Below are positions 215 to 45,985 of a stretch of DNA of 64,000 nt, in pieces; within the stretch, counting starts at the first letter, position 1; each line of letters starts with the position of its first letter. A model generated the notes under the pieces. It did not search any database and was not told where the DNA came from. It saw only the letters and a program-made list of their open reading frames with translations. The position numbers were made by a program, and so were the translations under genes. This DNA is from Nannocystis sp. RBIL2 (GTDB lineage: Bacteria; Myxococcota_A; Polyangia; Nannocystales; Nannocystaceae): contig NZ_JAPNJW010000002.1 of NCBI RefSeq assembly GCF_026626745.1, positions 1,190,151 to 1,254,150 on the forward strand, written 5' to 3'.

Positions 215-1858
215 ATGACCCGCCTCCGGCAGGCCCTTGCCTCGCTCGCGCTGCTCGTGCCTGCGGCCTCCGCCCGCGCCGCCGAGACCGTCCAGGAGCT
301 CAAGGGACAGGTCCCGATGGACAGCCTCGACCACTTCTTCGTCGCCTTCGACGTCCCGGCCGGCACGCGCGAGATCGAGATCGCCCACGACGACCTCTCG
401 GACGACAACATCCTCGACTGGGGCCTCGTCGACCCGCAGGGTGTGTTCCGCGGCTGGGGCGGCGGCAACGACGAGAACGCAGTCGTCGGCGAGGCCGCCG
501 CCTCGCGCTCCTACGTCCCCGGCCCGATCGCCGCCGGCACGTGGAGCGTCGTCGTCGGCAAGGCCAAGCTCGCCGCGCCGCCCGGCGAGTACCTGATCAC
601 CATCACCCTGCGCGACGCCCCGACCTTGCCGGCCCAGCCCGAGCGCGCGCCCTATCAGCCGGTCACGCTCGGCGGCGGCCCGCGCTGGTACGCCGGCGAC
701 TTCCACGTCCACTCGCGCGAGAGCGGCGACGCCTCGCCGACCCTCGACGCCATCGCCGAGTTCGCGCGCGGCCGCGGCCTCGACTTCGTGGTCGTCACCG
801 ACCACAACACCACCTCGCACCTCGACTTCTTCGCCGACGCCCAGGCCCGTCACCCTGACCTCCTGTTCGTCCCCGGCTGCGAGTTCACCACCTACGCCGG
901 CCACATGAACGCCATCGGCGCGACCGCCTGGGTCGACCACAAGCTCGGCCAGCCCGGCGTCAGCATCACCGCCGCGGCCGACGCCTACGACCTGCAGGGC
1001 GCCGTGCTCAGCGCCAATCACCCCGCCCTCGCGCTCGGCGATCTGTGCATCGGCTGCGCCTGGCAGCTCGACCTCGACCCTGCCCGCCTCGGCGCCGTCG
1101 AGATCGCGACCGGCGGCCTCGACAAGGCCGGCATGTTCTTCACCGACGACGCCATGCGCTTCTGGGACGACCTGTGCGACCAGGGCCATCGCCCGGCCCC
1201 GATCGGCGGCAGCGACGATCACAAGGCCGGCCTCGACCTCGGCGGCTTCGACAGCCCGATCGGCGACCCCACCACCCTCGTGTACGCCGACTCCCTCGGC
1301 GTCGACGCGATCCTCGCCGGACTCCGCGCCGGCCGCACCGTCGTCAAGCTGCAGGGCCCGGCCGATCCGATGCTCGAGCTGTCCTCCGGGACACACGTCC
1401 CCGGGGACAGCCTCGAAGCGAGCCAGGCCGTCGTCAGCGTGCGGGTCGCCGGCGCCCCTGCGGGCGCGAGCGTCCGTCTGGTCCGCGACCGCAAGCCCCT
1501 GGAGGCGGTGCCCGTCGCCGGCGACCCTTTCACCCACGAATTCCTCGTCGAGCCGCCCGCCGCCGGCTACACGCGCGTCCGCGCCGAGGTCCTCGTCGAC
1601 GGCAAGCCGCGCACCGTCACCAACCACCTGTGGATCGCCGCGCCGCCGGCCGAAGCCCCAACCACCGGCCCCGAGACCACCGGCGACCCGACCACCGGCC
1701 CCGAGCCCACCACGAACACCGGCAGCTCCGAGCCCGGCACCGCCAGCGACTCGGCCGGCGCGAGCCCGCCCGAGACCGGCTGCGGCTGCCGCAACGACGG
1801 CCCGCTCTCACCTGTCCTCGCGGCCAGCCTGCTCGCGCTCCGCCGCCGCCGCCGCTGA
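215..1858 (+). CDS. secreted PHP-domain metal-dependent phosphoesterase with MYXO-CTERM tail
   Basis: ORF 167..1858, Met at 215 begins signal peptide MTRLRQALASLALLVPAASARA; PHP motifs GDFHVHS and VVVTDHN; C-terminus GCGC followed by a hydrophobic helix and RRRRR matches the Myxococcales MYXO-CTERM pattern. Confidence 0.75.
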   Translation: MTRLRQALASLALLVPAASARAAETVQELKGQVPMDSLDHFFVAFDVPAGTREIEIAHDDLSDDNILDWGLVDPQGVFRGWGGGNDENAVVGEAAASRSYVPGPIAAGTWSVVVGKAKLAAPPGEYLITITLRDAPTLPAQPERAPYQPVTLGGGPRWYAGDFHVHSRESGDASPTLDAIAEFARGRGLDFVVVTDHNTTSHLDFFADAQARHPDLLFVPGCEFTTYAGHMNAIGATAWVDHKLGQPGVSITAAADAYDLQGAVLSANHPALALGDLCIGCAWQLDLDPARLGAVEIATGGLDKAGMFFTDDAMRFWDDLCDQGHRPAPIGGSDDHKAGLDLGGFDSPIGDPTTLVYADSLGVDAILAGLRAGRTVVKLQGPADPMLELSSGTHVPGDSLEASQAVVSVRVAGAPAGASVRLVRDRKPLEAVPVAGDPFTHEFLVEPPAAGYTRVRAEVLVDGKPRTVTNHLWIAAPPAEAPTTGPETTGDPTTGPEPTTNTGSSEPGTASDSAGASPPETGCGCRNDGPLSPVLAASLLALRRRRR

Positions 1859-1886
1859 CGCTCCACAGACCAAACGAGCATCTCAA

Positions 1887-1909
1887 GACATGTCCTTCAG
1901 GGCATGTCC
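1887..1909. repeat. GGACATGYCC-family palindromic element
   Basis: AGACATGTCC ... GGGCATGTCC between the PHP gene and the methyltransferase. Confidence 0.7.
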
Positions 1910-1935
1910 TTTCAATCACACTTAGCACCCGCCCG

Positions 1936-2697
1936 TCACACCGCCCGCAGCACGTAGAACGAGTACCCGTAGTCCTCGGCGTGCGCGCGGAACATCGCCA
2001 CCTCCGCCTCCGTCTCGCGGATGGCCGCTCGCATCGCAGCGTCCGCCGTCTCACGGACCTCGTCCACCCGGCGCAGGCGCGGCCCGTAGTAGTTGTCCCA
2101 CCACGCTCGCGCCGGCAGCCGATGCACGCTCAGCACCGCGAACCCTGCCTCACGCGCCCGCGCGGCGTTCGTCGCCTCGGTCCCCATCGTCGGATAACCG
2201 GCCGCCCAGTACTCGCGCGCCGCCGCGGCCGGCGTCTCGGTCCACCAGCTCGCCTCCGAGATCACCGCGACCCCGCCCTGCGCCACCAGCGGTCGCCAGC
2301 GCTGCACCGCGCCCGCGAACGTCAGGTGGTACGCAGCCCCCTCCGACCACAGCAAGTCGATCGATCCCGCCGGCCAGTCGAGCGCTGCGAAGTCGGCCTC
2401 CACCGCGCGCACGAGCGACGCGAGCCCGCGCTCGTGCGCCCGCGCCTCGAGCTGGTCGAGGAACGCCCGCAGGCCATCGACCGCGATCACCGGCACCCCG
2501 AACGTCTCCGCCAGGAGCAGCGCCCCGGCCCCCGCGCCGCAGCCGAGGTCGGCGATCCGCGGCGCCTCCGGCAGCGCCGGCAAGCCCGCCAGGATCTCCC
2601 GGCTGAACTGCGGGTCTCCCGGCCCCATGCGCTCGAGCCCGCGGTGCAGCTCGATGAGCGCGGCCATCATCTCGTCTGGTGTCGGCTCGTCGGCCAT
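1936..2697 (-). CDS. class I SAM-dependent methyltransferase
   Basis: ORF 1936..2955, internal Met MADEPTPDE at 2697; glycine-rich SAM motif LGCGAGAGALLLA; the upstream part of the ORF is Arg-rich frame noise. Confidence 0.8.
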   Translation of the reverse strand: MADEPTPDEMMAALIELHRGLERMGPGDPQFSREILAGLPALPEAPRIADLGCGAGAGALLLAETFGVPVIAVDGLRAFLDQLEARAHERGLASLVRAVEADFAALDWPAGSIDLLWSEGAAYHLTFAGAVQRWRPLVAQGGVAVISEASWWTETPAAAAREYWAAGYPTMGTEATNAARAREAGFAVLSVHRLPARAWWDNYYGPRLRRVDEVRETADAAMRAAIRETEAEVAMFRAHAEDYGYSFYVLRAV

Positions 2698-2830
2698 GCC
2701 GCCACGATACCACCCTTCACCGCCGTCGTCCCGCCAGCGACCGGCCGTCTCATCGCCTGTCTCTTCCATCATGTCCCTTCGGACATGCCCATCCTCCCGC
2801 CGCTCCGCCCCGCGGTGTATGCTCGCGCGC

Positions 2831-3616
2831 ATGTCCACGGACCGCCGGATCTCGACCCAGACACACGGCCACGTGCGGATGATCGGCCTCGACCGCGCCG
2901 CCAAGCGCAACGCCTTCGACCTCGCCATGCTGCGGCAGCTGGCGGAGGCCTTCACCGAATTCGAGGACGATCCGCAGCTGCGCTGCGCCGTCGTGTTCGC
3001 CCACGGCGATCACTTCACCGCCGGCCTCGACCTCGCCGAGGTCGGCCCCGCCGTCGCGCGCGGCGAGCCGCTGTTCCCCGAGGGCGCAGTCGATCCGCTC
3101 GGCCTCCACGGCCGCGTCCGCAGCAAGCCGGTCGTGCTGGCCGTCCAGGGCTTCTGCCTGACCCTCGGCATCGAGTTGATGCTGGCCGCCGACATCCGGA
3201 TCGCCGCCAGCGACGCGCGCTTCGGCCAGATCGAGATCCGGCGCGGGATCTTCCCGTTCGGCGGGGCGACCTTGCGGCTGCCGCAGGTCGCCGGGTGGGG
3301 CAACGCGATGCGCTGGCTCCTCACCGGCGACATGTTCGACGCCGCCGAGGCGCTGCGGATCGGCCTCGCGCAGGAAGTGGTCGAGCCCGGCAAGCAGGTC
3401 GAGCGGGCCGCCGAGATCGCGGCCACGATCGCCGCCCAGGCCCCGCTCGGCGTGCGGGCCACCCTCGCCACCGCCCGCACCACCGTGGAGCGCGGCCCCG
3501 AGGCCGCCCTCGCCGGCATGATGGCCGAGGTCCGCGCGATCATGGGCTCGGACGACGCGCGTGAGGGCATGCAGTCGTTCGTCGAGCGCCGGGCGGCGAA
3601 GTTCACCGGCGCCTGA
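2831..3616 (+). CDS. enoyl-CoA hydratase/isomerase (crotonase) family protein
   Basis: ORF 2627..3616, start MSTDRR at 2831; crotonase fold signatures (FTAGLDL, oxyanion-hole region GFCLTLGIELMLAADIRIAA). Confidence 0.85.
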   Translation: MSTDRRISTQTHGHVRMIGLDRAAKRNAFDLAMLRQLAEAFTEFEDDPQLRCAVVFAHGDHFTAGLDLAEVGPAVARGEPLFPEGAVDPLGLHGRVRSKPVVLAVQGFCLTLGIELMLAADIRIAASDARFGQIEIRRGIFPFGGATLRLPQVAGWGNAMRWLLTGDMFDAAEALRIGLAQEVVEPGKQVERAAEIAATIAAQAPLGVRATLATARTTVERGPEAALAGMMAEVRAIMGSDDAREGMQSFVERRAAKFTGA

Positions 3617-3748
3617 CCTTTGGGCCAGGCCCCGCGGTGAGTCCGCGCAGGACGCCCGTCCGCCGCCGCGCCGGTTCGTGGCGACCCGCGAGGACGGGGT
3701 TATACTCGCGCGGCACGGCGCGGCGACCGCGCCACGAAGGAGACAGCG

Positions 3749-4036
3749 ATGAAGATCGACCTGGAGAAGTTCCTCGCGGCCACCATGCTGCTCGCCACTG
3801 CCACCACCCCGGCCTGCGGCAGCAAGGACGCCAAGAAAGTCGAGACCAAGGCCGACACCAAGACCGCGGCCCCGCCGCCCGCTCAACCCCAGCCGACGCC
3901 GGCGCCGGTCGCCGCTCCGCCCGCCGCGCCCGAGGCTGCCCCGCCGGCGACCCCGCCCGCGCCCGACGCCGCCGACAAGCCCTCCGGCGCCGCCAAGCCC
4001 GACCCGGGCCCCGAGGAAGAGAAGCCGTCCTGGTGA
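3749..4036 (+). CDS. small secreted Pro/Ala-rich protein
   Basis: AAGGAG-like RBS aaggagacagcgATG; N-terminal hydrophobic signal MKIDLEKFLAATMLLATATTPACGS; (A/P)-rich low-complexity body. Confidence 0.55.
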   Translation: MKIDLEKFLAATMLLATATTPACGSKDAKKVETKADTKTAAPPPAQPQPTPAPVAAPPAAPEAAPPATPPAPDAADKPSGAAKPDPGPEEEKPSW

Positions 4037-4042
4037 CCTTTC

Positions 4043-4160
4043 GGGCATGTCCTCTGCGACATGCCCCATCGAACCTGACCTTTTTGCCATGCCCCGAGAG
4101 CCATCCGCGCTCTCGGGGTATTGCTATCTGTCCCGCAGGCCATGTCCCGCGGGACAGCGG
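4043..4160. repeat. cluster of GGACATGYCC-family elements plus palindrome CCGAGAGC-N7-GCTCTCGG
   Basis: GGGCATGTCC, GCGACATGCCCC, CCATGCCCC and TGTCCCGCGGGACA fill the whole 3'-3' intergenic space. Confidence 0.75.
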
Positions 4161-4161
4161 C

Positions 4162-5187
4162 TTAGATCCGCGTCTCGCTGCTCGCCAGGCGCTTCTTGCC
4201 GAGCATCCCCGCGGCGTCGAACCACTCGTAGATGTCGCGCACGCTGTCCGCGAACGGCCGGACCGTGTAGCCGAGCGCGCGCTCGGCCTTGCCGTGGTCG
4301 AAGCGCGCGCGCGTGGCCAGCACCGACAGCGACTCGTGGGTGTAGAGCGGCTCCTGCCGCATCACCGCGCCGGCGACCCCGAACAGCGGCACCCCGACGC
4401 GCGCGAACCAGATCGGCGCCACCAGCCGCGGCGGCTTCACGCCGGTGATCGCCTCGGCGATAGCTCCGATGTCGCGCACGTGCACCGTGTGCCCCGTCAG
4501 CAGGTAGTTCTCGCCGTTCTCGCCGCGGGCCTGCGCGGCCAGCATCCCGGCCACCACGTCGCGCACGTCGACGAAGTCGAACGCCCCGTCGATCAGGCTC
4601 GGCAGCGACCGCCGGTACAGCTGCAGGAACATCCGGCCCATGCGCGACGGTCCGAAGTCGTACGGCCCGATCACGCCCGAGGGATGCACGATCACAGCGT
4701 CGAGGCCGCGACCCATCACCTCGCGGAGCGCCCGCTCGCCGGCCGCCTTCGAGCGGTCGTAGGCGAAGTGGCTCGGCTCGTCGGGCACCCGCGGCCAGCG
4801 CTCGTCGACCTCCACGCCGCTCGTGCCCTCGCGGTAGAGGTCGAACGCGTGGACCGAGCTGCAGTGGACCAGCCGGCGCACGCCCGCGGCCAGCGCCGCC
4901 TCGGCGATCGAGCGCACGCCGTCGACGTTGACCGCGCGCACCAGCCCCCGCGGGTCGCCCGAGATCGAGATCTGGGCCGCGAGGTGATACACGACGTCGA
5001 CTCCCGCGGTCGCGCGGCGCGCCGCGTCCGGATCGCGCACGTCGCCGGTGACGCGTTCGACGTCGAGCCCCGCGAGCGCGCGCTGGGAATTGCGGACGAG
5101 CACGCGGACGCGCTCGCCGCGAGACAGCAACGTACGGACTAGATTCGCGCCGATGTGACCCGCGGCGCCGGTGACGAGGACGGTCAT
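4162..5187 (-). CDS. NAD-dependent epimerase/dehydratase (extended SDR) family protein
   Basis: ORF 4162..5373, Met at 5187 MTVLVTGAAGHIGANLV (Rossmann GxxGxxG); YxxxK region HFAYDRSK. Confidence 0.85.
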   Translation of the reverse strand: MTVLVTGAAGHIGANLVRTLLSRGERVRVLVRNSQRALAGLDVERVTGDVRDPDAARRATAGVDVVYHLAAQISISGDPRGLVRAVNVDGVRSIAEAALAAGVRRLVHCSSVHAFDLYREGTSGVEVDERWPRVPDEPSHFAYDRSKAAGERALREVMGRGLDAVIVHPSGVIGPYDFGPSRMGRMFLQLYRRSLPSLIDGAFDFVDVRDVVAGMLAAQARGENGENYLLTGHTVHVRDIGAIAEAITGVKPPRLVAPIWFARVGVPLFGVAGAVMRQEPLYTHESLSVLATRARFDHGKAERALGYTVRPFADSVRDIYEWFDAAGMLGKKRLASSETRI

Positions 5188-11100: not shown

Positions 11101-12120
11101 ATGCCTCCCGTGCGCGACCCGCGGGTGCTCACGGCTGGCCTGGCGGCCGCTCTCGCCTGCGGGGAGCCGGCGCCCGCTGCTGCGCCCGAGGAGGACGCGC
11201 CCGCACCGACCTCGCGCCCCGCCCCGCGCCCACTCGTCCACCTCGATCCGCTCGGCCCCCGCGACCTCGACCCCGCGCGCGGGTCCTCGCCTCGCCTCAC
11301 CGTCCACCTCGAGCCGGTCGACGCCCGCGACCTCGACCTCCTGGCGCGCTGGCCCTCGCTCGCGCACTACCCCCGTGTCCCGCAGGTGCTCGCCGCCGGC
11401 CTGCGCGCGCGCGACCCCGCCGCGATCTTCCGCGGCATGGAGCTCGCCTTCGAGCCCGATCGCTGGGCCGAGATCGACGCCTGGGAGCGCCTCGGCCACA
11501 TCCGCCTCGGCGATCCCGCCGGCTTCTGCCGCACCGACGCCGGCAGCCCCGTGCGGCTGTCCCCTGGGACATACGACCTCGGCTGCCTCGGCGGCTTCCT
11601 CGAGGGCGTCCGCCTGCTGTGGTTGCCGCGACTCGAGCTCGCGGACCTCGTGCCCTGCGATCCGCCCGCCGGCTTCGAGTCGTGCCAGGACGGCGCCCAC
11701 GCCGGCCGCGCCGCCCTCCTGCAGATAGCGGCGCGCCTGCCCGCCGATGACCTCCCCCACGGCCTCGAGCTGCTCGAGCTGCGCCTCGCCGAGCTCGGCC
11801 CCGACGCCTTGATCGCCGCCCTCGTCCCCGACGCGCTCAACCTCTGCAGCGTCTCGCACCGGGCCCGCGCCCGCGGCGGCGAGCGCATGTACCATCACAT
11901 GATGATCGTCGACCCCGCCCGCGATCGCCTCGGCCGCGTGCGCGTGTTCGACACCACCGGCGCCGCCGGCGTCGCCTGGCGGTCGATGCGACCCGAGCGC
12001 CTGCACGGCTACGCGCGCCGCCTCCTGGCCCTCCACGACACCTTCCGCTACGACCCCGAGTCCGCCCGGCTCACCTGCCTCCCCGTGCGCCCGCCGGACG
12101 GCGAAATCACAGGTCCTTGA
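11101..12120 (+). CDS. hypothetical protein, probable lipoprotein
   Basis: Strong GC3 codon bias in the + frame; N-terminus MPPVRDPRVLTAGLAAALACG; the overlapping minus-strand ORF 11014..12036 is a low-complexity shadow. Confidence 0.55.
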   Translation: MPPVRDPRVLTAGLAAALACGEPAPAAAPEEDAPAPTSRPAPRPLVHLDPLGPRDLDPARGSSPRLTVHLEPVDARDLDLLARWPSLAHYPRVPQVLAAGLRARDPAAIFRGMELAFEPDRWAEIDAWERLGHIRLGDPAGFCRTDAGSPVRLSPGTYDLGCLGGFLEGVRLLWLPRLELADLVPCDPPAGFESCQDGAHAGRAALLQIAARLPADDLPHGLELLELRLAELGPDALIAALVPDALNLCSVSHRARARGGERMYHHMMIVDPARDRLGRVRVFDTTGAAGVAWRSMRPERLHGYARRLLALHDTFRYDPESARLTCLPVRPPDGEITGP

Positions 12121-12131
12121 GGACAGGTCCC

Positions 12132-12716
12132 ATGCGCCAGGTGCGAAAGTACATCCTCCGCCTCCTCGCCGTCCTGTGCGTCTGGGGCCTCGTCCATCTG
12201 CTCGTCATCGCCGTCGACGGCTGCACTGACGAGGGCCGCCCCGCCGACGTCGCGGTCGTCCTCGGCAACCACGTCAGCCCCGCCGGCGAGCCCGCGCGCC
12301 GCCTCCAGCTGCGGCTCGATCGCGCCGCCGCCCTGTACGCCGCAGGCCTCGTCCCGCGCCTCATCGTCAGCGGCGGCCAGGATCCCGGCAGCCCGCACGA
12401 GGCCGACGTCATGCGCGACTACCTGGTCGCCCGCGGCGTCCCGGCCGAGCGGATCGCCGTCGACCGCGGCGGCATCAACACCCACGCCACCGCCCGCTTC
12501 GTCGCCGCCGACCTGCGCGCCCGCGGCGAGCGCTCCGCCATCGCCGTCAGCCAGTACTACCACGTCACCCGCACCAAGCTGGCGCTGCGCCGCTTCGGCG
12601 TCGAGGCCACCGGCGCGCACGCCGACCTCGAGCTCGAGCTGCGCGAGCCGTGGTCGTTGCTGCGCGAGGTCATCGGCTTCTACGCCTACCTGTTCAAGGA
12701 CTACCGCCTCGAATAA
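12132..12716 (+). CDS. YdcF/ElyC-like DUF218 family protein
   Basis: ORF 12117..12716; Met MRQVRKY at 12132; DUF218-like AVVLGNHVSPAG...RLIVSGGQ. Confidence 0.7.
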   Translation: MRQVRKYILRLLAVLCVWGLVHLLVIAVDGCTDEGRPADVAVVLGNHVSPAGEPARRLQLRLDRAAALYAAGLVPRLIVSGGQDPGSPHEADVMRDYLVARGVPAERIAVDRGGINTHATARFVAADLRARGERSAIAVSQYYHVTRTKLALRRFGVEATGAHADLELELREPWSLLREVIGFYAYLFKDYRLE

Positions 12717-12719
12717 ACG

Positions 12720-12752
12720 GAGAGGACATGTCCGTATGAACATGCCCTCTCG
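12720..12752. repeat. GGACATGYCC-family element
   Basis: AGAGGACATGtccgtatgaaCATGCCCTCT inverted repeat between convergent genes. Confidence 0.7.
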
Positions 12753-12769: not shown

Positions 12770-13858
12770 TCAGAACTCGTCGAGGCCCTGGCCGAGCTCG
12801 ACCCCGAGCGCCTCCTGGGCGGCGGTCGGGCACGGCGACGCGAAGCGCGACTCGTAGCGGGCCGTGAACTCGGCGTTGGCGACCATCGCCTGGTCGTCGG
12901 CCTGCAGCTCGGGCAGCAGGCCGCGGACCGCGAACACCTCGATCTCGCCGACGCTGCGGGTCACCGTCGTCTGCAGGAACTCGAGCGAGAAGAACGGCTC
13001 GATGAGCTGACGGACCGCCCCGGACACGCACACCGAGTCGGGCTGTCCGACGCGCTCGACGTGGCTGGCGACGCTGACGGTGTCGCCCCACAGGTCGTAG
13101 ACCGGCTTCTTCGAGCCGAGCACGCCGGAGATGCAGGGCCCCGAGTGGAGGCCGATGCGGAAGCTCCAGTCCCACTCGTCGACGATCGGCGTCAGCCCCG
13201 ACGCCACCACCTGGGCGCAGCGCAGCGCGGCGAACGTCGCGTCGACGGCGTGCGACAGGCGGCGGTGGGGGATGCCCGAGACCGCCACGTACGTGTCGCC
13301 GGCGGTGCGCAGCTTCTCGACGCCGAACGCCGTCGTGATCTGGTCGAAGGCCGAGAAGAAGAAGTCGAGCTGCTTGAGGCAGGTGACCGGGTCGACGCGG
13401 GCGGCCAGGCGCGAGAACTGGACCGCGTCGATGAACATCACCGTCGACTCGCGGTACGCCTTGGGCTGGAGCCGCTCGCCGAGCGGCGCCGCCGACTCAC
13501 GCGGCAACACCGCCAGCGCCAGGCTCTTGTCGAGCAGGGTCGCGGTCGCCAGCTGCGACGCCAGCGCCCGCGGCGAGCGGATCGCGACGCCCACCGCCAG
13601 CACCCCGTCGGATGGCTCCAAGGACAGGTCCCATGCGACAGGTCCTTCGGGCCAGGGGTTCTCGGGCACCGCCTTGCCGCTGCTCTCGGCCAGGCTGCGC
13701 AGGAACGCCGGCGACGCGGCGCCGAACAGCGCGCCGAGGCTGGGCGCGCCGGGGCGGGCGGCCAGCCAGCGGGCCGCCGCCGGCGACACCGGGGTCACCT
13801 TGCCGTCGGCATCGACGCGCAGCGCGATCGACTCCACCAGCTCGAGGATGGCCACCAT
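12770..13858 (-). CDS. class III adenylate/guanylate cyclase with N-terminal domain of unknown function
   Basis: C-terminal CYCc domain VMFIDAVQFSRLAARVD...LRTAGDTYVAVSGIP...RIGLHSGPCISGVLG; start ATG lies 1 nt after the stop of the upstream gene. Confidence 0.85.
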   Translation of the reverse strand: MVAILELVESIALRVDADGKVTPVSPAAARWLAARPGAPSLGALFGAASPAFLRSLAESSGKAVPENPWPEGPVAWDLSLEPSDGVLAVGVAIRSPRALASQLATATLLDKSLALAVLPRESAAPLGERLQPKAYRESTVMFIDAVQFSRLAARVDPVTCLKQLDFFFSAFDQITTAFGVEKLRTAGDTYVAVSGIPHRRLSHAVDATFAALRCAQVVASGLTPIVDEWDWSFRIGLHSGPCISGVLGSKKPVYDLWGDTVSVASHVERVGQPDSVCVSGAVRQLIEPFFSLEFLQTTVTRSVGEIEVFAVRGLLPELQADDQAMVANAEFTARYESRFASPCPTAAQEALGVELGQGLDEF

Positions 13859-13859
13859 G

Positions 13860-14267
13860 TCAGAACTCTCGCACGTCCTCGAAGGTCGTCCGGGCGGCGA
13901 TGGTTTCCTCGTCGAGGTTGAGCAGGATCGGCAGCGTCTCCTGCTGCCAGTCGTCCTCCTGCAGGCGGCGGACCAGCACCGGCCCGGGCAGCAGCAGGTA
14001 CACCAGCTCGACGATGTCCATGATCACGTAGAAGCCGTTGGAGTTGCAGAACTCGAGCTCGGTGAAGTCGAGCACGCTGCGCTGGATCTCGCGCTTCGGC
14101 AAGATCTCGCGCAGGTCCTGCAGCAGGGCCGACAGATAGCGATAGGGGTTGTCGATGCGGACCACGCCCGAGAACGTGAGGGAGAAGTTCCCCTCGTCCT
14201 CGCGGGCGACGCAGTGGAACACACTGACGCCGCCGTCCATGATCTCGCCGTAGGTGAGGACGTTCAT
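13860..14267 (-). CDS. SiaC-like DUF1987 partner-switch protein
   Basis: ORF 13860..14627 trimmed to Met MNVLTYGEIMDGG (the upstream part is R-rich noise); about 135 aa; RIDNPYRYLSALLQDL and LEFCNSNGFYVIMDIVELV resemble the SiaC/DUF1987 SYPEN...LNTSS pattern. Confidence 0.55.
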   Translation of the reverse strand: MNVLTYGEIMDGGVSVFHCVAREDEGNFSLTFSGVVRIDNPYRYLSALLQDLREILPKREIQRSVLDFTELEFCNSNGFYVIMDIVELVYLLLPGPVLVRRLQEDDWQQETLPILLNLDEETIAARTTFEDVREF

Positions 14268-14779
14268 TGCGCACCTCGCAAAGGAAACACCGCCTGCATC
14301 GTCAAGTTCTCGCCCGAGTACGTCGCGGACAAGCGGAAGCGGTTCTCGGACACCAGGCGGATGAGGCCGAGCCCGCCGCGCAGCCGCTGCATGCGGCGGG
14401 CGCGGAGCGTGTCGGCGAACAGGCGCTTGGGATCCGTCGCGGTCGTCAGCCGCTCGACGCGGTCCTTGACGTCCTGGTACTGCTCGAAGGTCGCCTTGTT
14501 GGTGACCTGGACCTGCAGCGCGTCGCCGTCGATGCGCAGGTCGACGCGCATCTGGCTGCCCGGATCGCTGACGTTGTCGATCACGTTCTGGACCAGCTCG
14601 GTGATGACCACGTTGGCCTTCTTGCACAGCGCCTGCGGGTAGAACACCGTCAGCATCGCCAGCAGCGACTCGCCGACGGTCGTCGCCAGGTTGCCACGCG
14701 CGTCGCCCATCGGCGCGACCGTCAGCGTCAGGCCGACGCTGGTCGTGATCGGTTCATCGTCGAACTCGTGCTCGCTCAC
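14264..14779 (-). CDS. RsbW/SiaB-like serine kinase (HATPase_c anti-sigma-factor-type)
   Basis: GTG start (VSEHEFDD) overlaps the upstream stop as GTGA; N-box-like ELVQNVIDN and G-box RGGLGLIRL. Confidence 0.55.
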   Translation of the reverse strand: MSEHEFDDEPITTSVGLTLTVAPMGDARGNLATTVGESLLAMLTVFYPQALCKKANVVITELVQNVIDNVSDPGSQMRVDLRIDGDALQVQVTNKATFEQYQDVKDRVERLTTATDPKRLFADTLRARRMQRLRGGLGLIRLVSENRFRLSATYSGENLTMQAVFPLRGAQ

Positions 14780-15702
14780 GCCGCCCGCCTCCGCAGCACG
14801 ATGAGGGTGATGTCGTCGGCGTCGACGCGACGGAACTGCCCGTAGTCGTCGAGGCACCGCTGAAGGATCTGATTGGCCGGCAGCTCCGAGTTGGTGCGCA
14901 CGAGCTCGTGCAGCCGGCGGGTGCTGTAGTCGGCGCCCGCGCTGTCCTGCGCCTCGACCATGCCGTCCGTGTACAGCGCCAGCACGTCACCTGTCTCGAA
15001 GGGCAGCTCGTACTCGCTGTACGCGCGGCGGCGCAGGCCGATGAACGGGTCGCCCTTGTTGAACGTGTGGACCTCTCCGCCGCGGACCAGCACCCCGTAG
15101 CCGCCGCCGCACACGTAGCGGAACGTGCGCTCGCCGAACGCGACGAAGTTGACGGTGGCGTAGCGGCGGACCTCGCGGAGGAACCCGACGGTCGCGTTGT
15201 TGAGGTACTCGACGATGTCGCGCGGGCGCGACACCTGCTCCATCGTCTGGACCAGCTGGGCCTTGAGGTAGGCCATGATCAGCGCCGCCGACACCCCGTG
15301 GCCGGAGATGTCGAACACGCCGATCGCGTGGCTGCCGTCGCGCAGGCGGTAGAAGTCGTAGTAGTCGCCGCCGACCTCGGTCATCTGCTTGTGGTAGACC
15401 GAGAACTCGAAGCGCGCGAGCATCTCCGGGTGGTCCTTCGGCAGCAGCGCGTGCTGGACCTGCTGGGCGATCTCGAGGTCCTGGCGGATGGTCTGGTAGG
15501 CGCGGGCCAGCTCGCGCTCCTGCTCGTCGAGCCGCTCGTACGCGGTGCGCAGGTTGTCGTTGGTCGCCTGCCAGTAGGCGGTGTCGCGCTCGACCCGCTT
15601 GAGCAGGCCCTTGTACATCCAGAACAGCCTGCGCATGTCCTCGCGCGACAGCTCGGACAGGCGGTCGGGGTCTCGCCCCTCGAGGATCTCGTCGAGCGTC
15701 AT
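14776..15702 (-). CDS. PP2C-family protein serine/threonine phosphatase (SpoIIE/RsbU/SiaA-like) with N-terminal coiled coil
   Basis: PP2C/SpoIIE signatures GGDYYDFY, DISGHGVSAALIMA, LYTDGMVEA; stop overlaps the next start. Confidence 0.85.
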   Translation of the reverse strand: MTLDEILEGRDPDRLSELSREDMRRLFWMYKGLLKRVERDTAYWQATNDNLRTAYERLDEQERELARAYQTIRQDLEIAQQVQHALLPKDHPEMLARFEFSVYHKQMTEVGGDYYDFYRLRDGSHAIGVFDISGHGVSAALIMAYLKAQLVQTMEQVSRPRDIVEYLNNATVGFLREVRRYATVNFVAFGERTFRYVCGGGYGVLVRGGEVHTFNKGDPFIGLRRRAYSEYELPFETGDVLALYTDGMVEAQDSAGADYSTRRLHELVRTNSELPANQILQRCLDDYGQFRRVDADDITLIVLRRRAA

Positions 15703-15703
15703 C

Positions 15704-16246
15704 TCAGTGGAACTCCACCACGAGCCGGTTGGGGTCGCCGTCGTTCGTCACGTCGACGTAGTAGAGGTCGCCGGGCGCCATCACCCCGCCGATCAGCACG
15801 CCGCGCTCGATCGTCTTGTCGAACGGCGTGGACGAGCGGATCACGGCGTGGCCGCGGTCCGAGTCGAACTCGGCGAGGTCGAACGAGCCGACCACCTCGC
15901 GCGGGCCACGGATGACGCTGGCGATGCCGTGGCTGCCGGTCTGAAAGTGCAGGAAGTCGGCGCCGCGGTGGATGAGCGCCTTGCCGGGCCCGCCGTGGTA
16001 CCACAGCCGCATCATCTCGATGCCGAGCTTGAGCCGGATCGGCTCCACGTTGGCGTACGACTCGCCGACCATCCGCTCGATCTCCATCCACTTCGACAGC
16101 GGGAACCACCGCCCCATGTCGATGTCGGCCAGCAGCGCGGTGGCTCGTCGACCGGCGACGATGTTGAGGTTGACGCACGCCTGGGCGAAGCCGCCCATGA
16201 GCGCCCCGTGGACCACCGGCTCGCTCGGCTCGCTCTCGCCGCTCAT
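15704..16246 (-). CDS. hypothetical 180-aa sensor-like protein (tentatively H-NOX/V4R-like fold)
   Basis: ORF 15704..17299 trimmed to MSGESEPSEP (upstream part is frame noise overlapping the real GRAS gene); ATG overlaps the upstream stop (ATGA); spacing of hydrophobic residues and an IRSST segment are reminiscent of H-NOX YxSxR proteins, but this is not proven. Confidence 0.45.
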   Translation of the reverse strand: MSGESEPSEPVVHGALMGGFAQACVNLNIVAGRRATALLADIDMGRWFPLSKWMEIERMVGESYANVEPIRLKLGIEMMRLWYHGGPGKALIHRGADFLHFQTGSHGIASVIRGPREVVGSFDLAEFDSDRGHAVIRSSTPFDKTIERGVLIGGVMAPGDLYYVDVTNDGDPNRLVVEFH

Positions 16247-17337
16247 CCCGCCTCCCCCGAGAACGCGAACACCGCGATGATCGGCACCCCGCGGTAGGAC
16301 AGCCGCACGAGCCCGGAGCTGACCGAGGAGCGGCAGTACTCGGGCAGATCGACGTCGAGGTCGATCGCCGGGTACGGCACGAAGCCCGACTTCTTCAGCC
16401 GGAGCAGCCACGACTCGAGCGTCTCGTGACGCTCGGTGCGGAAGGCGTCGCTGGTGCCGAGGATGTCGCGGACCTCGCGGCCGAAGAAGCCCTCCTTGAT
16501 GGCGAACTTCTCGTCCGGGGACGCGTCGCTGCGGTCGACCAGATCGAACACCGTCGCGAAGTGCTGCCAACAGTGATGCATGCGCCGGGTCAGGTGCTCG
16601 GTGTCGTGGTCCGAGCTCGGCTCCACCAGCGTGAACACCCGCGGCCTCAGGGCCCGCAGCCGCCGCAGCAGGCGGGTGCGCGCGTCGCTGTCGGGGCCCG
16701 TGGTGTGGTGCAGCGTGTAGGCCGCGTTGATCGACAAGCTCCCCTCGGCGAGCGCCTCGAAGTGCGCGTAGTCGGCATCCTCGCAGACCTCGATCAGCTT
16801 GACCAGCGGATAGATCTCGATGTCGAACGGCAGCTCGGCGCGGACCTCGTCGATCGCGGCCACGCCCTCGTTCAGGGCGGTGCGGTTCGGCTCCAGCGCG
16901 ATCACGCGGAGGCGCTCGATCTTGCCGGGATCGCGCGCGAGCGCCCGCAGCAGCGCGACGATCTGCAGGCCCTTGCCGATCCCGATCTCGAGCAGCGCCG
17001 GCGTGCTCGACTGCCGCATCGCGTGAACGAGGTACTGGTTGGCCAGCGCGTAGCCCTGCGGCACCGCCGGGATCGCCCGCTGCAGCAGCGTGAACAGGTC
17101 GATCTGCGGCCGCTTCTCGGCTTGCAGGTACAAGTTCCGCCCCGACAGCAGGTTGCGGTCGATCCGTCGCAACAGCGACTCGGCGACGATGTGGGACAAC
17201 AGCGCGTCGCTCGGGACATCGACGTCGAGGGCGTCGAGGAGCTGGCTCGCTATCACCGTCTTGGCGACCTGCTCGCGATGCCGGCGAATGTCCTGGCACG
17301 CGGCCAAAATCAGCTTGTAGCGGTCCTCGTAGAGCAT
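16243..17337 (-). CDS. bacterial GRAS-family protein (Rossmann methyltransferase-like fold)
   Basis: ORF 16243..17484 trimmed to ATG MLYEDRYKLIL at 17337; LEIGIGKGLQ nucleotide-binding-like motif; C-terminal RTERHETLESWLLRLKKSGF resembles the GRAS RVER/SAW region. Confidence 0.55.
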   Translation of the reverse strand: MLYEDRYKLILAACQDIRRHREQVAKTVIASQLLDALDVDVPSDALLSHIVAESLLRRIDRNLLSGRNLYLQAEKRPQIDLFTLLQRAIPAVPQGYALANQYLVHAMRQSSTPALLEIGIGKGLQIVALLRALARDPGKIERLRVIALEPNRTALNEGVAAIDEVRAELPFDIEIYPLVKLIEVCEDADYAHFEALAEGSLSINAAYTLHHTTGPDSDARTRLLRRLRALRPRVFTLVEPSSDHDTEHLTRRMHHCWQHFATVFDLVDRSDASPDEKFAIKEGFFGREVRDILGTSDAFRTERHETLESWLLRLKKSGFVPYPAIDLDVDLPEYCRSSVSSGLVRLSYRGVPIIAVFAFSGEAG

Positions 17338-17631
17338 GCGCCGCAGACTGAAGGTCACACAGGGGATCCGCCTTGGCAAGCTGATGCGCACCCGATCGTG
17401 GCCGAGAAGATTATCTCGGCCCTCGCGCGGAAACGCGCCGCGTAGCCTGGCGCAGGCCCCGTCGGCCTCTGTCTCAAAGACCACCCAGCGGCGCTACCGG
17501 ACCGCGGGCCACTGCGCAGGTCGCGTGCGGCAGAGGACCGCGACGGCGTGCGACGGACTGCATCTTGAGACATGGTCCGAAAACCATGACGCGGCGCGGC
17601 GAACCGGGCCAAAGTGGCACGAAAGCAGGCC

Positions 17632-18159
17632 TCACGCGGCGGCGGCGCCGCCAGCCATCTGCACCTCTGCAGCGGCGCTCGCCAGCGATCGCAGCTCGAG
17701 CCCGACCTCGAAGCTCAGCGCGGTCGCGCCGACGCGGCCGCGTTGGCTCTCGCGGTGAACTTCTACGGCGAGCGTCACGTGCGTCGCATTCGGTACTCTG
17801 CCGCTGCGGAAGCGCACCGTCGCGATCGCAGTCAGCGGCTCCCCCACCAGCACCTCACCGAAGCGCCGCACGCGGCTGATGCTGCGCAGCGTGAGCGCGA
17901 CGTCGCGGAACGGCTCGCTGTGGGCCAGGGCCGACAGCGCCCGACCGAATGCGACCGGCAGCGGACAAACTCGACCCCACGGCTCCGGCGCGCCGCCGCC
18001 GGACACGCTCCCGGTCGACAGCATCTCCTCTCCGCAACCCACTACCTGTCCCAAGAAGCTGGACTCCACATGCGCAGTCAGATCGGCCGGCTTCACCGTG
18101 AAGGTAGAAGTCGTCAAGACCGTTCCGACGCTGAGAGATCCGAGATCGTGTGCGAGCAT
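17632..18159 (-). CDS. hypothetical protein, possibly hotdog-fold (thioesterase/MaoC-like); atypical codon usage
   Basis: AGGAGG 8 nt upstream of ATG; many rare codons for this genome (gca, gga, tct, ttg, act, gta, aga); lies in a lower-GC island 17340-18440. Confidence 0.4.
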   Translation of the reverse strand: MLAHDLGSLSVGTVLTTSTFTVKPADLTAHVESSFLGQVVGCGEEMLSTGSVSGGGAPEPWGRVCPLPVAFGRALSALAHSEPFRDVALTLRSISRVRRFGEVLVGEPLTAIATVRFRSGRVPNATHVTLAVEVHRESQRGRVGATALSFEVGLELRSLASAAAEVQMAGGAAAA

Positions 18160-28423: not shown

Positions 28424-29000
28424 CCTGTCCTCTCGGGCCAGCCTCAGACGCGCGCCCTCAGGACGTCGCCTCACCTGTTCCTGAGGTCCTGTCCTTTCGA
28501 ACAGCCTCTCGCGCGTTCTAGCGACGTCATCTCGCGGAACCCGGAGTCTGCCGACACAGCGCCTGTCCTTTCGACCAGCCTCACGAGCTCTCGAGACCGC
28601 CGAGGTACCGGTCGCATCGCTATCTCACTCGGAGCTCGGACTCTGCCCGGCACCCTTCTGTCCTCTCGACCAGCCTCACGCGCGATCCTCGGACGTCACC
28701 TCACTCGGAACTCGGACTCTGCCCGGCACCCTCCTGTCCTCTCGACCAGCCTCACGCGCGCTCCTCGGACGTCACCTCACTGGGCACTCGGACTCTGCCC
28801 GAAGCACACCTGTCCTTTCGACCATCACGCGCGTGCTGCAGGCGTCATCTCACGCGGAACTCGGAGCCTGCACGTCGAGCTCCTGTCCTTTCGACCAGCC
28901 TCCCGCGCGCGCCCCCGAGATGTCCGCCGCACGCCTGAGCCTGCCTGACGACGTCCTGCCCTTCTCACAGTCTCACGTACGCACCCGCCGGACGTCGCCT
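28424..29000. repeat. degenerate intergenic tandem array, about 8 units of 65-95 nt, each beginning CCTGTCCTYTCGAMCAGCCTC
   Basis: Read directly: units start at about 28424, 28488, 28562, 28657, 28733, 28809, 28883, 28956; units 4 and 5 are about 90% identical; no ORF with coding-like codon usage. Confidence 0.8.
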
Positions 29001-30780: not shown

Positions 30781-30995
30781 CGATATCTGTCCCTCAGGAC
30801 ATCTCGCTGCGGCGTCGGCCCTGCGATGTCAGATGTCCCGAAGGGCATTTCGCTGCGGCGTCAGCCCTGCGATGTCAGATGTCCCGAAGGGCATTTCGCT
30901 GCGGCGTCAGCCATGCCGCTGACGGCCCCACGCGACCTGTCCTTCGAGCCAGCTCGCGGCAGCCGGCCGGCCTGCCGCGAGCTCCTCGACCTGTG
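30755..30995. repeat. 25-bp direct repeat (CCTGCCGCGAGCTCCTCGACCTGTG) flanking a 191-bp insert with an internal 48-bp tandem duplication
   Basis: Copy 1 at 30755-30779 is the last codons of pepF; copy 2 at 30971-30995; the insert carries GGACA/TGTCC palindromes and two copies of CGCTGCGGCGTCAGCCCTGCGATGTCAGATGTCCCGAAGGGCATTT. Confidence 0.8.
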
Positions 30996-45662: not shown

Positions 45663-45985
45663 GCCTCGTGCGGCCCCAAGCGTCGAGGCAACCATCTGCC
45701 TGAGTCTCTTGCGGCCACCCCCGACAATCGGACCTCCGCCTGAGCCGCGAGCTCTCGCGCCGCGAGGCAGCCGTCATCGGACCTTCGCCCGGACCCTCGA
45801 GCTGCCCCTCAGGGCACCGAGGCGGCGCCCGACAATCGGGCCTCAGCCTGAGCCATGAGCTCTCGCCCCGAGGCAGCCGTCATCGGACCTTCGCCCGAAC
45901 CATCGAGCTCCCGCCCCAGGGCACCGCGGCCACCCCCGGACCTCCCCTCAGCCTCGAGCTCCCGCTCCGGACCTGCCTCGTCCTG
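45636..45985. repeat. tandem repeat (about 110 nt x2 plus partial copies) seeded from the 3' end of lspA copy 1
   Basis: CCGACAATCGGACC(G/T)CCGCCTGAGCC occurs at 45643 (last codons of lspA), 45722 and 45836; full units 45717-45828 and 45829-45934. Confidence 0.8.

Follow-up and report, generated by a model that had tools for sequence, protein, structure and literature searches.

Partner switches in which a PP2C phosphatase, a GHKL kinase and a STAS-fold phosphoprotein act together are known from the SpoIIE/SpoIIAA/SpoIIAB, RsbU/V/W, HsbR/A/D and BgrSTUWV systems. They have been described for the control of sigma factors and of diguanylate cyclases; HsbR/A/D and BgrSTUWV are of the latter kind, so that control of an enzyme rather than of a sigma factor has precedent (PMC8457831). 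In the SiaABCD system of Pseudomonas aeruginosa the components are the PP2C SiaA, the kinase SiaB, the DUF1987 protein SiaC and the diguanylate cyclase SiaD. Here we describe a cassette of six genes on a 64,000-nucleotide stretch of DNA from Nannocystis sp. RBIL2 (contig NZ_JAPNJW010000002.1, positions 1,190,151 to 1,254,150), referred to below as the window. In order, the genes encode a GRAS-family protein, a small sensor-like protein (P2), a PP2C phosphatase, a divergent GHKL-like protein (P4), a SiaC-like protein (P5) and a class III cyclase-homology protein. The interpretation that we favor, with some reserve, is that they constitute one transcription unit for a partner-switching pathway that operates by phosphorylation and includes a sensor of its own. 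In this cassette, a class III cyclase-type protein and a GRAS protein would be connected to such a switch, in Myxococcota as well as in Spirochaetota.

Three further groups of proteins are related to parts of the cassette. The slr1658 and slr1659 proteins of cyanobacteria (NF047703 and NF047705) are, like P4 and P5, encoded by an adjacent gene pair. The only phenotype known for slr1658 is that of a knockout, which concerns recovery from iron starvation and de-repression of pgr5 (PMC7555055, PMC6525291); a mechanism for slr1658/slr1659 or a description of DUF6272 was not found in the searchable literature. In H-NOX systems a stand-alone H-NOX protein adjoins a kinase or a GGDEF protein, while soluble guanylate cyclase has the domain order H-NOX-PAS-CC-cyclase. 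The GRAS family includes the DELLA, SCARECROW and SCL proteins of plants.

Organization and conservation of the operon

Between positions 12770 and 17337, the minus strand of the window carries six open reading frames (ORFs) in tandem, and consecutive genes either overlap or are separated by a single nucleotide (Table 1). The genes, their coordinates and the five stop/start junctions read exactly as given in a preliminary description of this DNA, which had been made from the sequence alone. The terminator-like hairpin that follows the cyclase gene is the sole such site between positions 12400 and 18400; as shuffled sequence contains a mean of 1.5, it lends weak support to an operon end. No sigma-70-like promoter was detected for the operon, a result of little weight in myxobacterial sequence of 70% G+C. 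The ratio of nonsynonymous to synonymous substitution rates (dN/dS) among Nannocystis species is 0.0-0.35 for all six genes, which indicates purifying selection. Given the location on one strand, the overlapping or near-zero spacing, the conserved gene order and the terminator-like end, a single transcription unit appears to be the best explanation of this layout.

For the analysis of conservation one genome per species was scanned, which yielded 80 loci encoding a relative of P5, and the six window proteins were compared with these loci by tblastn. The PP2C-P4-P5 core is present in every locus whose contig extends far enough upstream, and the 4-nt ATGA overlap of the P4 and P5 genes is nearly universal. 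The complete six-gene set, in the same order, was found in 23 of the 64 assessable loci, namely 7 from Nannocystis, 10 from Spirochaetota metagenome-assembled genomes (MAGs), 4 from other Myxococcota MAGs and 2 others. The gene order is therefore conserved in relatives, and its recurrence in Nannocystis, in other Myxococcota and in Spirochaetota shows that the arrangement is not due to chance. N. pusilla, N. punicea and related assemblies encode identical P5 proteins in the same six-gene context. GRAS and P2 were found together in 39 of 70 assessable loci, and in the loci examined GRAS was always accompanied by P2. The cyclase gene is located immediately 3′ of the P5 gene in 29 of 73 assessable loci, and no assessable locus contains it without GRAS and P2.

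Both ends of a 788-kb contig of N. exedens (NZ_NETK01000002.1; loci L011 and L013) carry incomplete copies of the operon with disturbed reading frames. An intact copy is present on the main contig (L009), and the incomplete ones probably represent assembly overlap and not true duplication.

A probable sensor-linker unit split between P2 and PP2C

The preliminary description had listed P2 as a possible H-NOX/V4R-like sensor. Fold comparison upheld this as far as the fold is concerned, which is H-NOX-like. On the other hand, the sequence of P2 gave no match at E-values up to 1 in Pfam or NCBIfam, H-NOX (PF07700) included, and the features of heme binding are missing. The proximal heme His has no counterpart, as no His is conserved in 37 close or 74 distant P2 homologs, and the propionate-binding motif YxSxR is absent, the corresponding strand reading I-[RH]-S-[ST]-T-P. 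The residues conserved in P2 are instead W47-Y48-P49, W82-Y83, Y108, R113, D128 and D160.

When 1.84 billion representative proteins were searched with a profile of the P2 family, 209 relatives were retrieved, many of them long proteins with an N-terminal P2 domain. Among 20 P2-domain proteins scanned with Pfam there were 11 histidine kinases, 5 GGDEF diguanylate cyclases and 2 class III cyclases, and in none of the 20 did any Pfam model span the P2 region. Since it is fused to the N-terminus of histidine kinases, GGDEF proteins and class III cyclases, the P2 domain is an input domain, used in the manner of H-NOX. We conclude that it is a previously unannotated sensor domain with an H-NOX-like fold. 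With about 200 representative clusters, an H-NOX fold devoid of heme ligands, and kinases, GGDEF proteins and cyclases that make use of it, its ligand is worth finding. A distant stand-alone relative (174 aa, 45% identity) was also observed on a contig of SRR28154529 (4381-6525; L095), with no GRAS gene nearby. It directly follows genes for a histidine kinase and a response regulator, which shows that this sensor also serves in two-component contexts.

The identification of the third gene product as a PP2C phosphatase was confirmed by Pfam SpoIIE (PF07228; 98.2 bits against a cut-off of 25, E = 7.8e-28) and by the full complement of metal-binding motifs, and the catalytic residues are intact in every locus. 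Its best match in NCBIfam is SiaA (NF038263; E = 2.3e-20), at 72.7 bits against a cut-off of 700 and over model positions 351-656 only. The N-terminus of the Nannocystis protein is soluble and helical and contains neither the membrane sensor nor the HAMP region of SiaA, so that the protein does not qualify as a SiaA.

This helical N-terminus, residues 1-95, which we call the W-linker, ties the phosphatase to P2 by homology. Of 148 representatives of the P2 domain, 32 were matched by a hidden Markov model (HMM) of the W-linker (best E = 3.9e-13); the match always lay immediately C-terminal to the P2 domain, and reversed or shuffled controls gave none. The motif common to the PP2C N-terminus and the fusion linkers is LFW.YK.L...R...FW.ATN.NL..AY..L. 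What is more, FW..TN is present in all 41 PP2Cs that have a P2 neighbor and in none of the 31 that have no P2 neighbor; L052, the only apparent exception to this co-occurrence, contains a partial P2. On the simplest reading, P2 and the N-terminus of PP2C would be the split form of a sensor-linker unit. P2 most likely regulates PP2C, given the homology between the PP2C N-terminus and the linker after P2 in the fusions. We rate this H-NOX-fold sensor domain with its split linker as the most original element of the cassette.

P4 and P5 resemble slr1658 and slr1659

P5 is at least 53% identical in every genome locus found. The nearest family is the slr1659 superfamily (NF047705), which is matched by all 34 members of the P5 family (best E = 2.5e-9) and by the window protein with 25.2 bits against a cut-off of 100 (E = 1.6e-5). 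DUF1987 is matched weakly by 18 of the 34 (best E = 8e-4) and STAS_2 by 15. Profiles of the P4 and P5 families gave nothing significant against PDB sequences, and only fold comparison was informative: the best structural match of P5 is SiaC, with a SpoIIAA-like core and extra N-terminal strands. The predicted phospho-acceptor, Ser76, is positioned at the start of a predicted helix (residues 76-92), and T68 of SiaC is likewise at the N-terminus of a helix (PMC7647112). Ser76 is kept in 33 of 34 aligned homologs. The remaining one, P0114, has an Asp at the phospho-site (FCNDNGFY), similar to a natural phosphomimetic. Two residues of P5 (33 and 72 of the window protein, alignment columns 34 and 73) at first seemed to track the presence of the cyclase; a neighbor-joining tree reduced the pattern to essentially one clade with several exceptions, and it was rejected as evidence.

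The best sequence match of P4 is slr1658_superfam (NF047703; E = 5.7e-9), at 35.6 bits against a cut-off of 100, and SiaB_fam (NF038262) gave no match. Within the P4 family, 25 of 26 members match DUF6272 and 14 of 26 match HATPase_c_2 (best E = 5.4e-7). The N-box residues E61 and N65 and the G2 box GGLGL are invariant.

Genuine slr1658 and slr1659 proteins are found next to the core in part of the loci. In a clade that has neither GRAS nor P2 (Sorangium, Polyangium, Chondromyces and Byssovorax), four genes precede PP2C-P4-P5. They form a second layer of switch genes, as in Chondromyces apiculatus (ASRX01000077.1, 1220-6435; L087) and in Sorangium and Polyangium (L018-L051), and encode a 190-aa slr1658-like protein, a 411-aa UbiE/ArsM-type class I S-adenosylmethionine (SAM) methyltransferase fused to an slr1659-like domain, a 793-aa dCache-HAMP-PP2C protein of SiaA-like architecture and a 305-aa slr1658-slr1659 fusion. 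The fusion protein of Chondromyces, X305, scores 147 and 146 bits for slr1658 and slr1659, against a cut-off of 100; true members of these families are immediate neighbors of the core in Sorangium, Polyangium and Chondromyces. By the Rosetta-stone argument, such a fusion supports P4 and P5 as a physical pair. The possibility that the 190-aa and 305-aa Chondromyces proteins are divergent forms of P2 or GRAS was ruled out by hhalign probabilities of at most 0.2%. In two loci from Nannocystis sp. MAGs (L014 and L016, positions ~1650-4470, opposite strand), the six-gene operon is preceded by divergently oriented genes that encode homologs of the slr1658-like protein and of both fusions, slr1658-slr1659 and slr1659-methyltransferase. 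Both types of cassette are thus adjacent there; the window contains none of the second type within its 64 kb.

The GRAS and cyclase-homology proteins

Membership of the first protein in the GRAS family, as claimed in the preliminary description, is well supported: Pfam GRAS (PF03514) was matched with 123.4 bits against a cut-off of 27 (E = 1.4e-35), and phmmer matched the bacterial protein to plant GRAS structures, for example that of rice SCL7 (5hyz, E = 1.9e-15). Its portrayal there as a putative ligand-binding protein had to be revised. In the GxGxG motif of 28 GRAS orthologs G119 and G121 are invariant and G123 is found in at least 90%, a pattern typical of SAM-dependent Rossmann methyltransferases. 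By its sequence, GRAS is a methyltransferase-type protein and not a mere ligand binder. Zhang, Iyer and Aravind reportedly predicted the GxGxG SAM motif for bacterial GRAS members in 2012. The public gene call starts at a GTG at position 17358, giving 371 aa; the N-termini of the orthologs fit the ATG at 17337.

The homolog search for GRAS, limited by its word index, recovered only operon-type orthologs and is uninformative on other contexts of bacterial GRAS proteins. One GRAS protein of 34% identity was encountered in a different neighborhood, on a short contig. In a cyclase-less locus of a Myxococcales MAG (JAEUKI010000076.1, 8481-12310; L090), the genes after P5 encode a 740-aa Ser/Thr kinase, then a second, longer GRAS protein of 534 aa, and further on an ADP-ribosylglycohydrolase and a spermine-synthase-like protein.

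The product of the last gene belongs to the class III cyclases, as had been proposed, with 124.9 bits for Pfam Guanylate_cyc (PF00211) against a cut-off of 21.9 (E = 3.7e-36). The segment ahead of its catalytic domain is about 130 aa long, not 230 aa as first described, and consists of about 95 aa and a transducer-like linker. A 'LALAVLP'/'LLLNILP..IA.EL' segment precedes the catalytic domain and looks like the cyclase-transducer element (CTE) of class IIIa/b enzymes, an element mentioned in PMC10622942. The N-terminal domain is possibly PAS-like; a weak match to PAS was obtained for 1 of 14 orthologs (E = 0.0045).

We aligned the protein with C1 and C2 of mammalian AC5 and with 35 orthologs from the same operon position. 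The metal-binding residues D144 and D188 and the substrate-binding D255 are kept in all aligned orthologs. In the Nannocystis clade, however, Arg184 replaces the substrate Lys, Ser262 the transition-state Asn and His266 the transition-state Arg (compare TVNVASRM in AC5 C2). The Asn is retained by 21 of the 36 proteins, the Arg by 19 and the Lys by 23, none of which belongs to the Nannocystis clade; the MAG locus L078 has also lost Asn and Arg and has kept Lys. The orthologs from Spirochaetota and from most other Myxococcota have K...D...SVNIA(S/A)RME, the canonical adenylate-cyclase set. The Ser/His pattern of Nannocystis is similar to that of C1, the non-catalytic half of mammalian cyclases. 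In class III cyclases turnover falls by orders of magnitude when the Asn-Arg pair is lost, and the Nannocystis homodimer is therefore probably a poor cyclase or no cyclase. A second cyclase able to complement it was not found in the 64-kb window. The gene is nevertheless not decaying, since purifying selection persists (dN/dS of 0.13-0.29). Canonical spirochete and degenerate Nannocystis cyclases in one conserved operon should allow the conversion of an enzyme to a pseudo-enzyme to be studied.

Proposed pathway and alternative explanations

From the gene order and its conservation, the folds, motifs, fusions and co-occurrences we infer the following protein-protein and enzymatic steps. As suggested by the fission and fusion of the domains, stand-alone P2 would sense a small non-heme ligand and act on the W-linker of PP2C. 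Judging from the motifs and by analogy with SiaABC and SpoIIE/AA/AB, PP2C would then strip the phosphate from Ser76 of P5, and P4 would add it. The phosphorylation state of P5 would decide its partner, with P5 switching between P4 and at least one effector. The likeliest partner encoded in cis would be the adjacent cyclase-homology protein. GRAS is a second candidate partner, or else it may make or modify the ligand. The cyclases of spirochetes and some myxobacteria, with their full residue set, would make cyclic AMP (cAMP), while the Nannocystis protein would probably have weak cyclase activity, serve as an inactive regulator or scaffold, or depend as a subunit on another cyclase.

Several observations weigh against this pathway. 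The cyclase is missing in 44 of the 73 assessable loci, where the gene that follows P5 is variable and encodes a hybrid histidine kinase, a Ser/Thr kinase, a PAS-GAF-STAS protein, a MarR regulator or unrelated enzymes. Its absence from more than half of the loci, together with the extreme conservation of P5, suggests that the main partner of P5 is a protein other than the cyclase. In the window, the cyclase does not have the full catalytic set of a homodimer (two metal Asp, substrate Lys/Asp, transition-state Asn/Arg). The cAMP- or cGMP-producing output envisaged in the preliminary description is thus doubtful in this genome. Direct evidence of contact between P5 and the cyclase or GRAS was not found. 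P5 scores 12.3 bits for DUF1987/SiaC (PF09345; E = 0.13) against a threshold of 24.5, which leaves it SiaC-like by fold but outside the family.

The window P4 is likewise below the thresholds for DUF6272 (E = 0.002), for HATPase_c (E = 0.0025; 18.7 against 26.4 bits) and for HATPase_c_2 (PF13581; E = 0.0071; 16.8 against 27.4 bits); it is nearer to DUF6272/slr1658 than to the RsbW/SiaB-type kinases proposed earlier. In addition, the G1 box (DxGxG) is replaced in the P4 family by a near-invariant Asn94 with no glycines. In other GHKL proteins mutation of the equivalent G1 Asp abolishes ATP binding, and with Asn in place of the expected adenine-contacting Asp the activity of P4 as an ATP-dependent kinase is uncertain. 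The alignment by hhalign of the P4 family with an approximate SpoIIAB sequence covered only the N-box and the G2 box, at 1.7% probability; this is too weak to place the G1 box, and the equivalence of Asn94 and the G1 Asp therefore rests on strand pattern and spacing. An equivalent of Asn94 is also present in the bona fide slr1658-type domain of X305.

Of the other explanations, one to which we give a limited chance is that the output of the cassette is methylation. P5, or the switch as a whole, would control the GRAS methyltransferase, GRAS would modify a small molecule, perhaps the ligand of P2, and the cyclase would be an accessory or a parallel branch. A SAM methyltransferase is indeed linked to the switch in both types of locus. 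GRAS, with its SAM motif retained, is together with P2 more widespread than the cyclase, and the GRAS-less clade has the UbiE/ArsM-like methyltransferase fused to a P5-like domain beside slr1658-like proteins. As this fusion ties methylation to the same kind of switch, GRAS may be a regulated output, instead of or besides an input. However, GRAS is the first gene of the operon and lies beside the sensor, which fits an input role equally well, P2 relatives occur without GRAS, and the contact with P5 on which this explanation depends has no direct evidence in its favor.

We think it improbable that the cassette is a Sia system in the literal sense, in which orthologs of SiaA, SiaB and SiaC control a class III cyclase in the place of SiaD and unphosphorylated P5 binds the N-domain of the cyclase and turns on cAMP or cGMP synthesis. 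The order phosphatase-kinase-phosphoprotein-cyclase does mirror siaABCD, SiaC and SiaA are the best structural and NCBIfam matches of P5 and PP2C, respectively, and the spirochete cyclases have the full Lys/Asp/Asn/Arg set. But the scores of P5 and P4 given above, the affinity of their sequences to slr1658/slr1659 and DUF6272, the missing SiaA-type sensor/HAMP part of PP2C, the residues Ser262, His266 and Arg184 of the window cyclase and the many loci without a cyclase all speak against it. Since P4 and P5 are below the curated cut-offs and have their best matches in DUF6272/slr1658 and slr1659, the cassette would work like a Sia-type switch but is not a member of the Sia family.

Quite unlikely is a third explanation, according to which P4 is a pseudokinase, P5 is not phosphorylated, the trio acts by stoichiometric sequestration and PP2C has another substrate. 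It would account for the lack of DxGxG in the G1 box, for the near-invariance of Asn94 and for the same feature in X305. Yet the N-box Glu/Asn and the G2 box are conserved, the catalytic residues of PP2C are retained in all loci, the canonical phospho-site keeps its Ser76, with an Asp in one homolog, and in the related pairs SiaB/SiaC and SpoIIAB/AA a true kinase acts on its substrate (PMC7647112). Finally, that the six genes are chance neighbors or share a promoter without a common pathway is hardly credible in view of the overlapping stop/start codons, the same order in two phyla, the sensor-linker unit split across the P2/PP2C boundary and the fusions of P4-like and P5-like domains.

To return to the partner-switching pathway that we favor, it may be taken a step further, although the odds are against it: P2 would be a widespread non-heme H-NOX-fold sensor domain that forms, with an ancestor-type GRAS methyltransferase, a sensing and modifying unit, and the cassette would be a hormone-like pathway leading from a ligand through methylation and a phospho-switch to cAMP. 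If true, it could reveal the role of GRAS before plants made the DELLA and SCARECROW regulators. The operon in any case places a bacterial GRAS protein in a defined signaling context, which bears on the origin of the plant GRAS regulators.

Other features of the window

The coordinates of the operon and of the features within it are listed in Table 1. The gene beyond the hairpin, DUF218, is convergent to the operon. A 175-aa ORF with no family match (17632-18159) is located some 290 nt upstream of the GRAS gene and has its orientation; it is restricted to Nannocystis (60-100% identity) and lies outside the conserved cassette, and was therefore ruled out as a member of the module. Tandem repeats were noted at 54303-54747 (132-bp unit, 3.4 copies, 89% matches), 28624-28910 (76 bp x 3.8), 30788-30916 (46 bp x 2.8, 92% matches) and 45720-45930 (106 bp x 2). 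No tRNA, transfer-messenger RNA (tmRNA) or Rfam family at the gathering threshold was found in the whole window, although the public annotation of this locus places smpB within a few kb of the operon.

Table 1. Positions of the operon genes, their junctions and selected features (window coordinates).
Feature	Position	Strand	Description
GRAS-family protein, 364 aa	16243..17337	-	Rossmann-type SAM methyltransferase-like; motif I 'EIGIGKG'
GRAS/P2 junction	16246-16243	-	ATGA, overlapping stop/start
P2, 180 aa	15704..16246	-	Stand-alone sensor protein, H-NOX/V4R-like fold, no heme ligands (fold comparison)
P2/PP2C junction	15703	-	TGA-g-ATG, 1-nt spacer
PP2C (SpoIIE-type) Ser/Thr phosphatase, 308 aa	14776..15702	-	Metal-binding motifs GGDYYD, DISGHG, YTDG, DADDIT complete
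Helical W-linker of PP2C, residues 1-95	15418..15702	-	LFWMYKGL...AYWQATNDNLRTAYERL; homologous to the linker after P2 in fusions
PP2C/P4 junction	14779-14776	-	GTGA overlap
P4, 171 aa	14264..14779	-	Divergent GHKL/HATPase-like (DUF6272/slr1658-like), presumed P5 kinase; N-box E61, N65; G2 box GGLGL at 135-139
P4/P5 junction	14267-14264	-	ATGA overlap
P5, 135 aa	13860..14267	-	SiaC-like/STAS-like predicted phosphoprotein; invariant motifs FCNSNGFY and DDWQQETLPILLN
Ser76 codon of P5	14040..14042	-	Predicted phospho-acceptor; aligns with the SpoIIAA phospho-Ser ('FMDSSG' vs 'FCNSNG')
P5/cyclase junction	13859	-	TGA-c-ATG, 1-nt spacer
Class III cyclase-homology protein, 362 aa	12770..13858	-	~95-aa N-domain, CTE-like linker, catalytic domain, 65-aa tail
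Cyclase catalytic domain, residues 131-295	12974-13468	-	Pfam Guanylate_cyc
Ser262 of the cyclase	13073-13075	-	At the position of the transition-state Asn
His266 of the cyclase	13061-13063	-	At the position of the transition-state Arg
Terminator-like hairpin	12720..12751	-	14-bp stem, then T-rich tail CGTTTATTCG; 18 nt past the cyclase stop codon
DUF218 gene	12117-12716		Beyond the hairpin, convergent to the operon

Comparison with known systems

In the searchable literature no class III cyclase or methyltransferase is reported as the partner of a switch and no description of the P2 domain was found; the 2012 paper on bacterial GRAS proteins may have noted the neighborhood. The preliminary description had held a Sia-type switch combined with a class III cyclase and GRAS to be undescribed, which agrees with this search, with the qualification that 'Sia-type' is valid for the logic and not for the family.

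The cassette shares the phosphatase-kinase-phosphoprotein logic of the SpoIIE/SpoIIAA/SpoIIAB, RsbU/V/W, HsbR/A/D and BgrSTUWV switches, and the phospho-Ser motif can be aligned with that of SpoIIAA. It differs from the classical switches in that it contains no sigma factor, in the SiaC-type extra N-terminal beta-strands of P5 and in the non-canonical G1 box of the kinase. The slr1658/slr1659 proteins are the best sequence matches of P4 and P5, but at scores so far below the cut-offs the latter form a separate, more distant family. The cassette offers a testable mechanistic frame for slr1658/slr1659, so far known from the cyanobacterial knockout phenotype only.

P2 is used as H-NOX is used, yet it has no detectable sequence similarity to H-NOX or V4R, it has conserved residues and a linker of its own, and it is coupled to a PP2C. 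Homology of the first protein to the plant GRAS proteins is clear; here the GRAS protein is part of a partner-switch operon and is always paired with the P2 sensor.

SiaABCD is the system that the cassette would resemble in function. Its sequence scores for the Sia families are nevertheless all below the cut-offs, and P4 groups with DUF6272/slr1658 and not with SiaB. The cassette PP2C has no membrane/HAMP sensor part, and a separate H-NOX-like sensor protein is present instead. Where SiaD is a GGDEF protein, the cyclase here is of class III (cAMP type) and catalytically degenerate in this genome, and a GRAS protein has been added.

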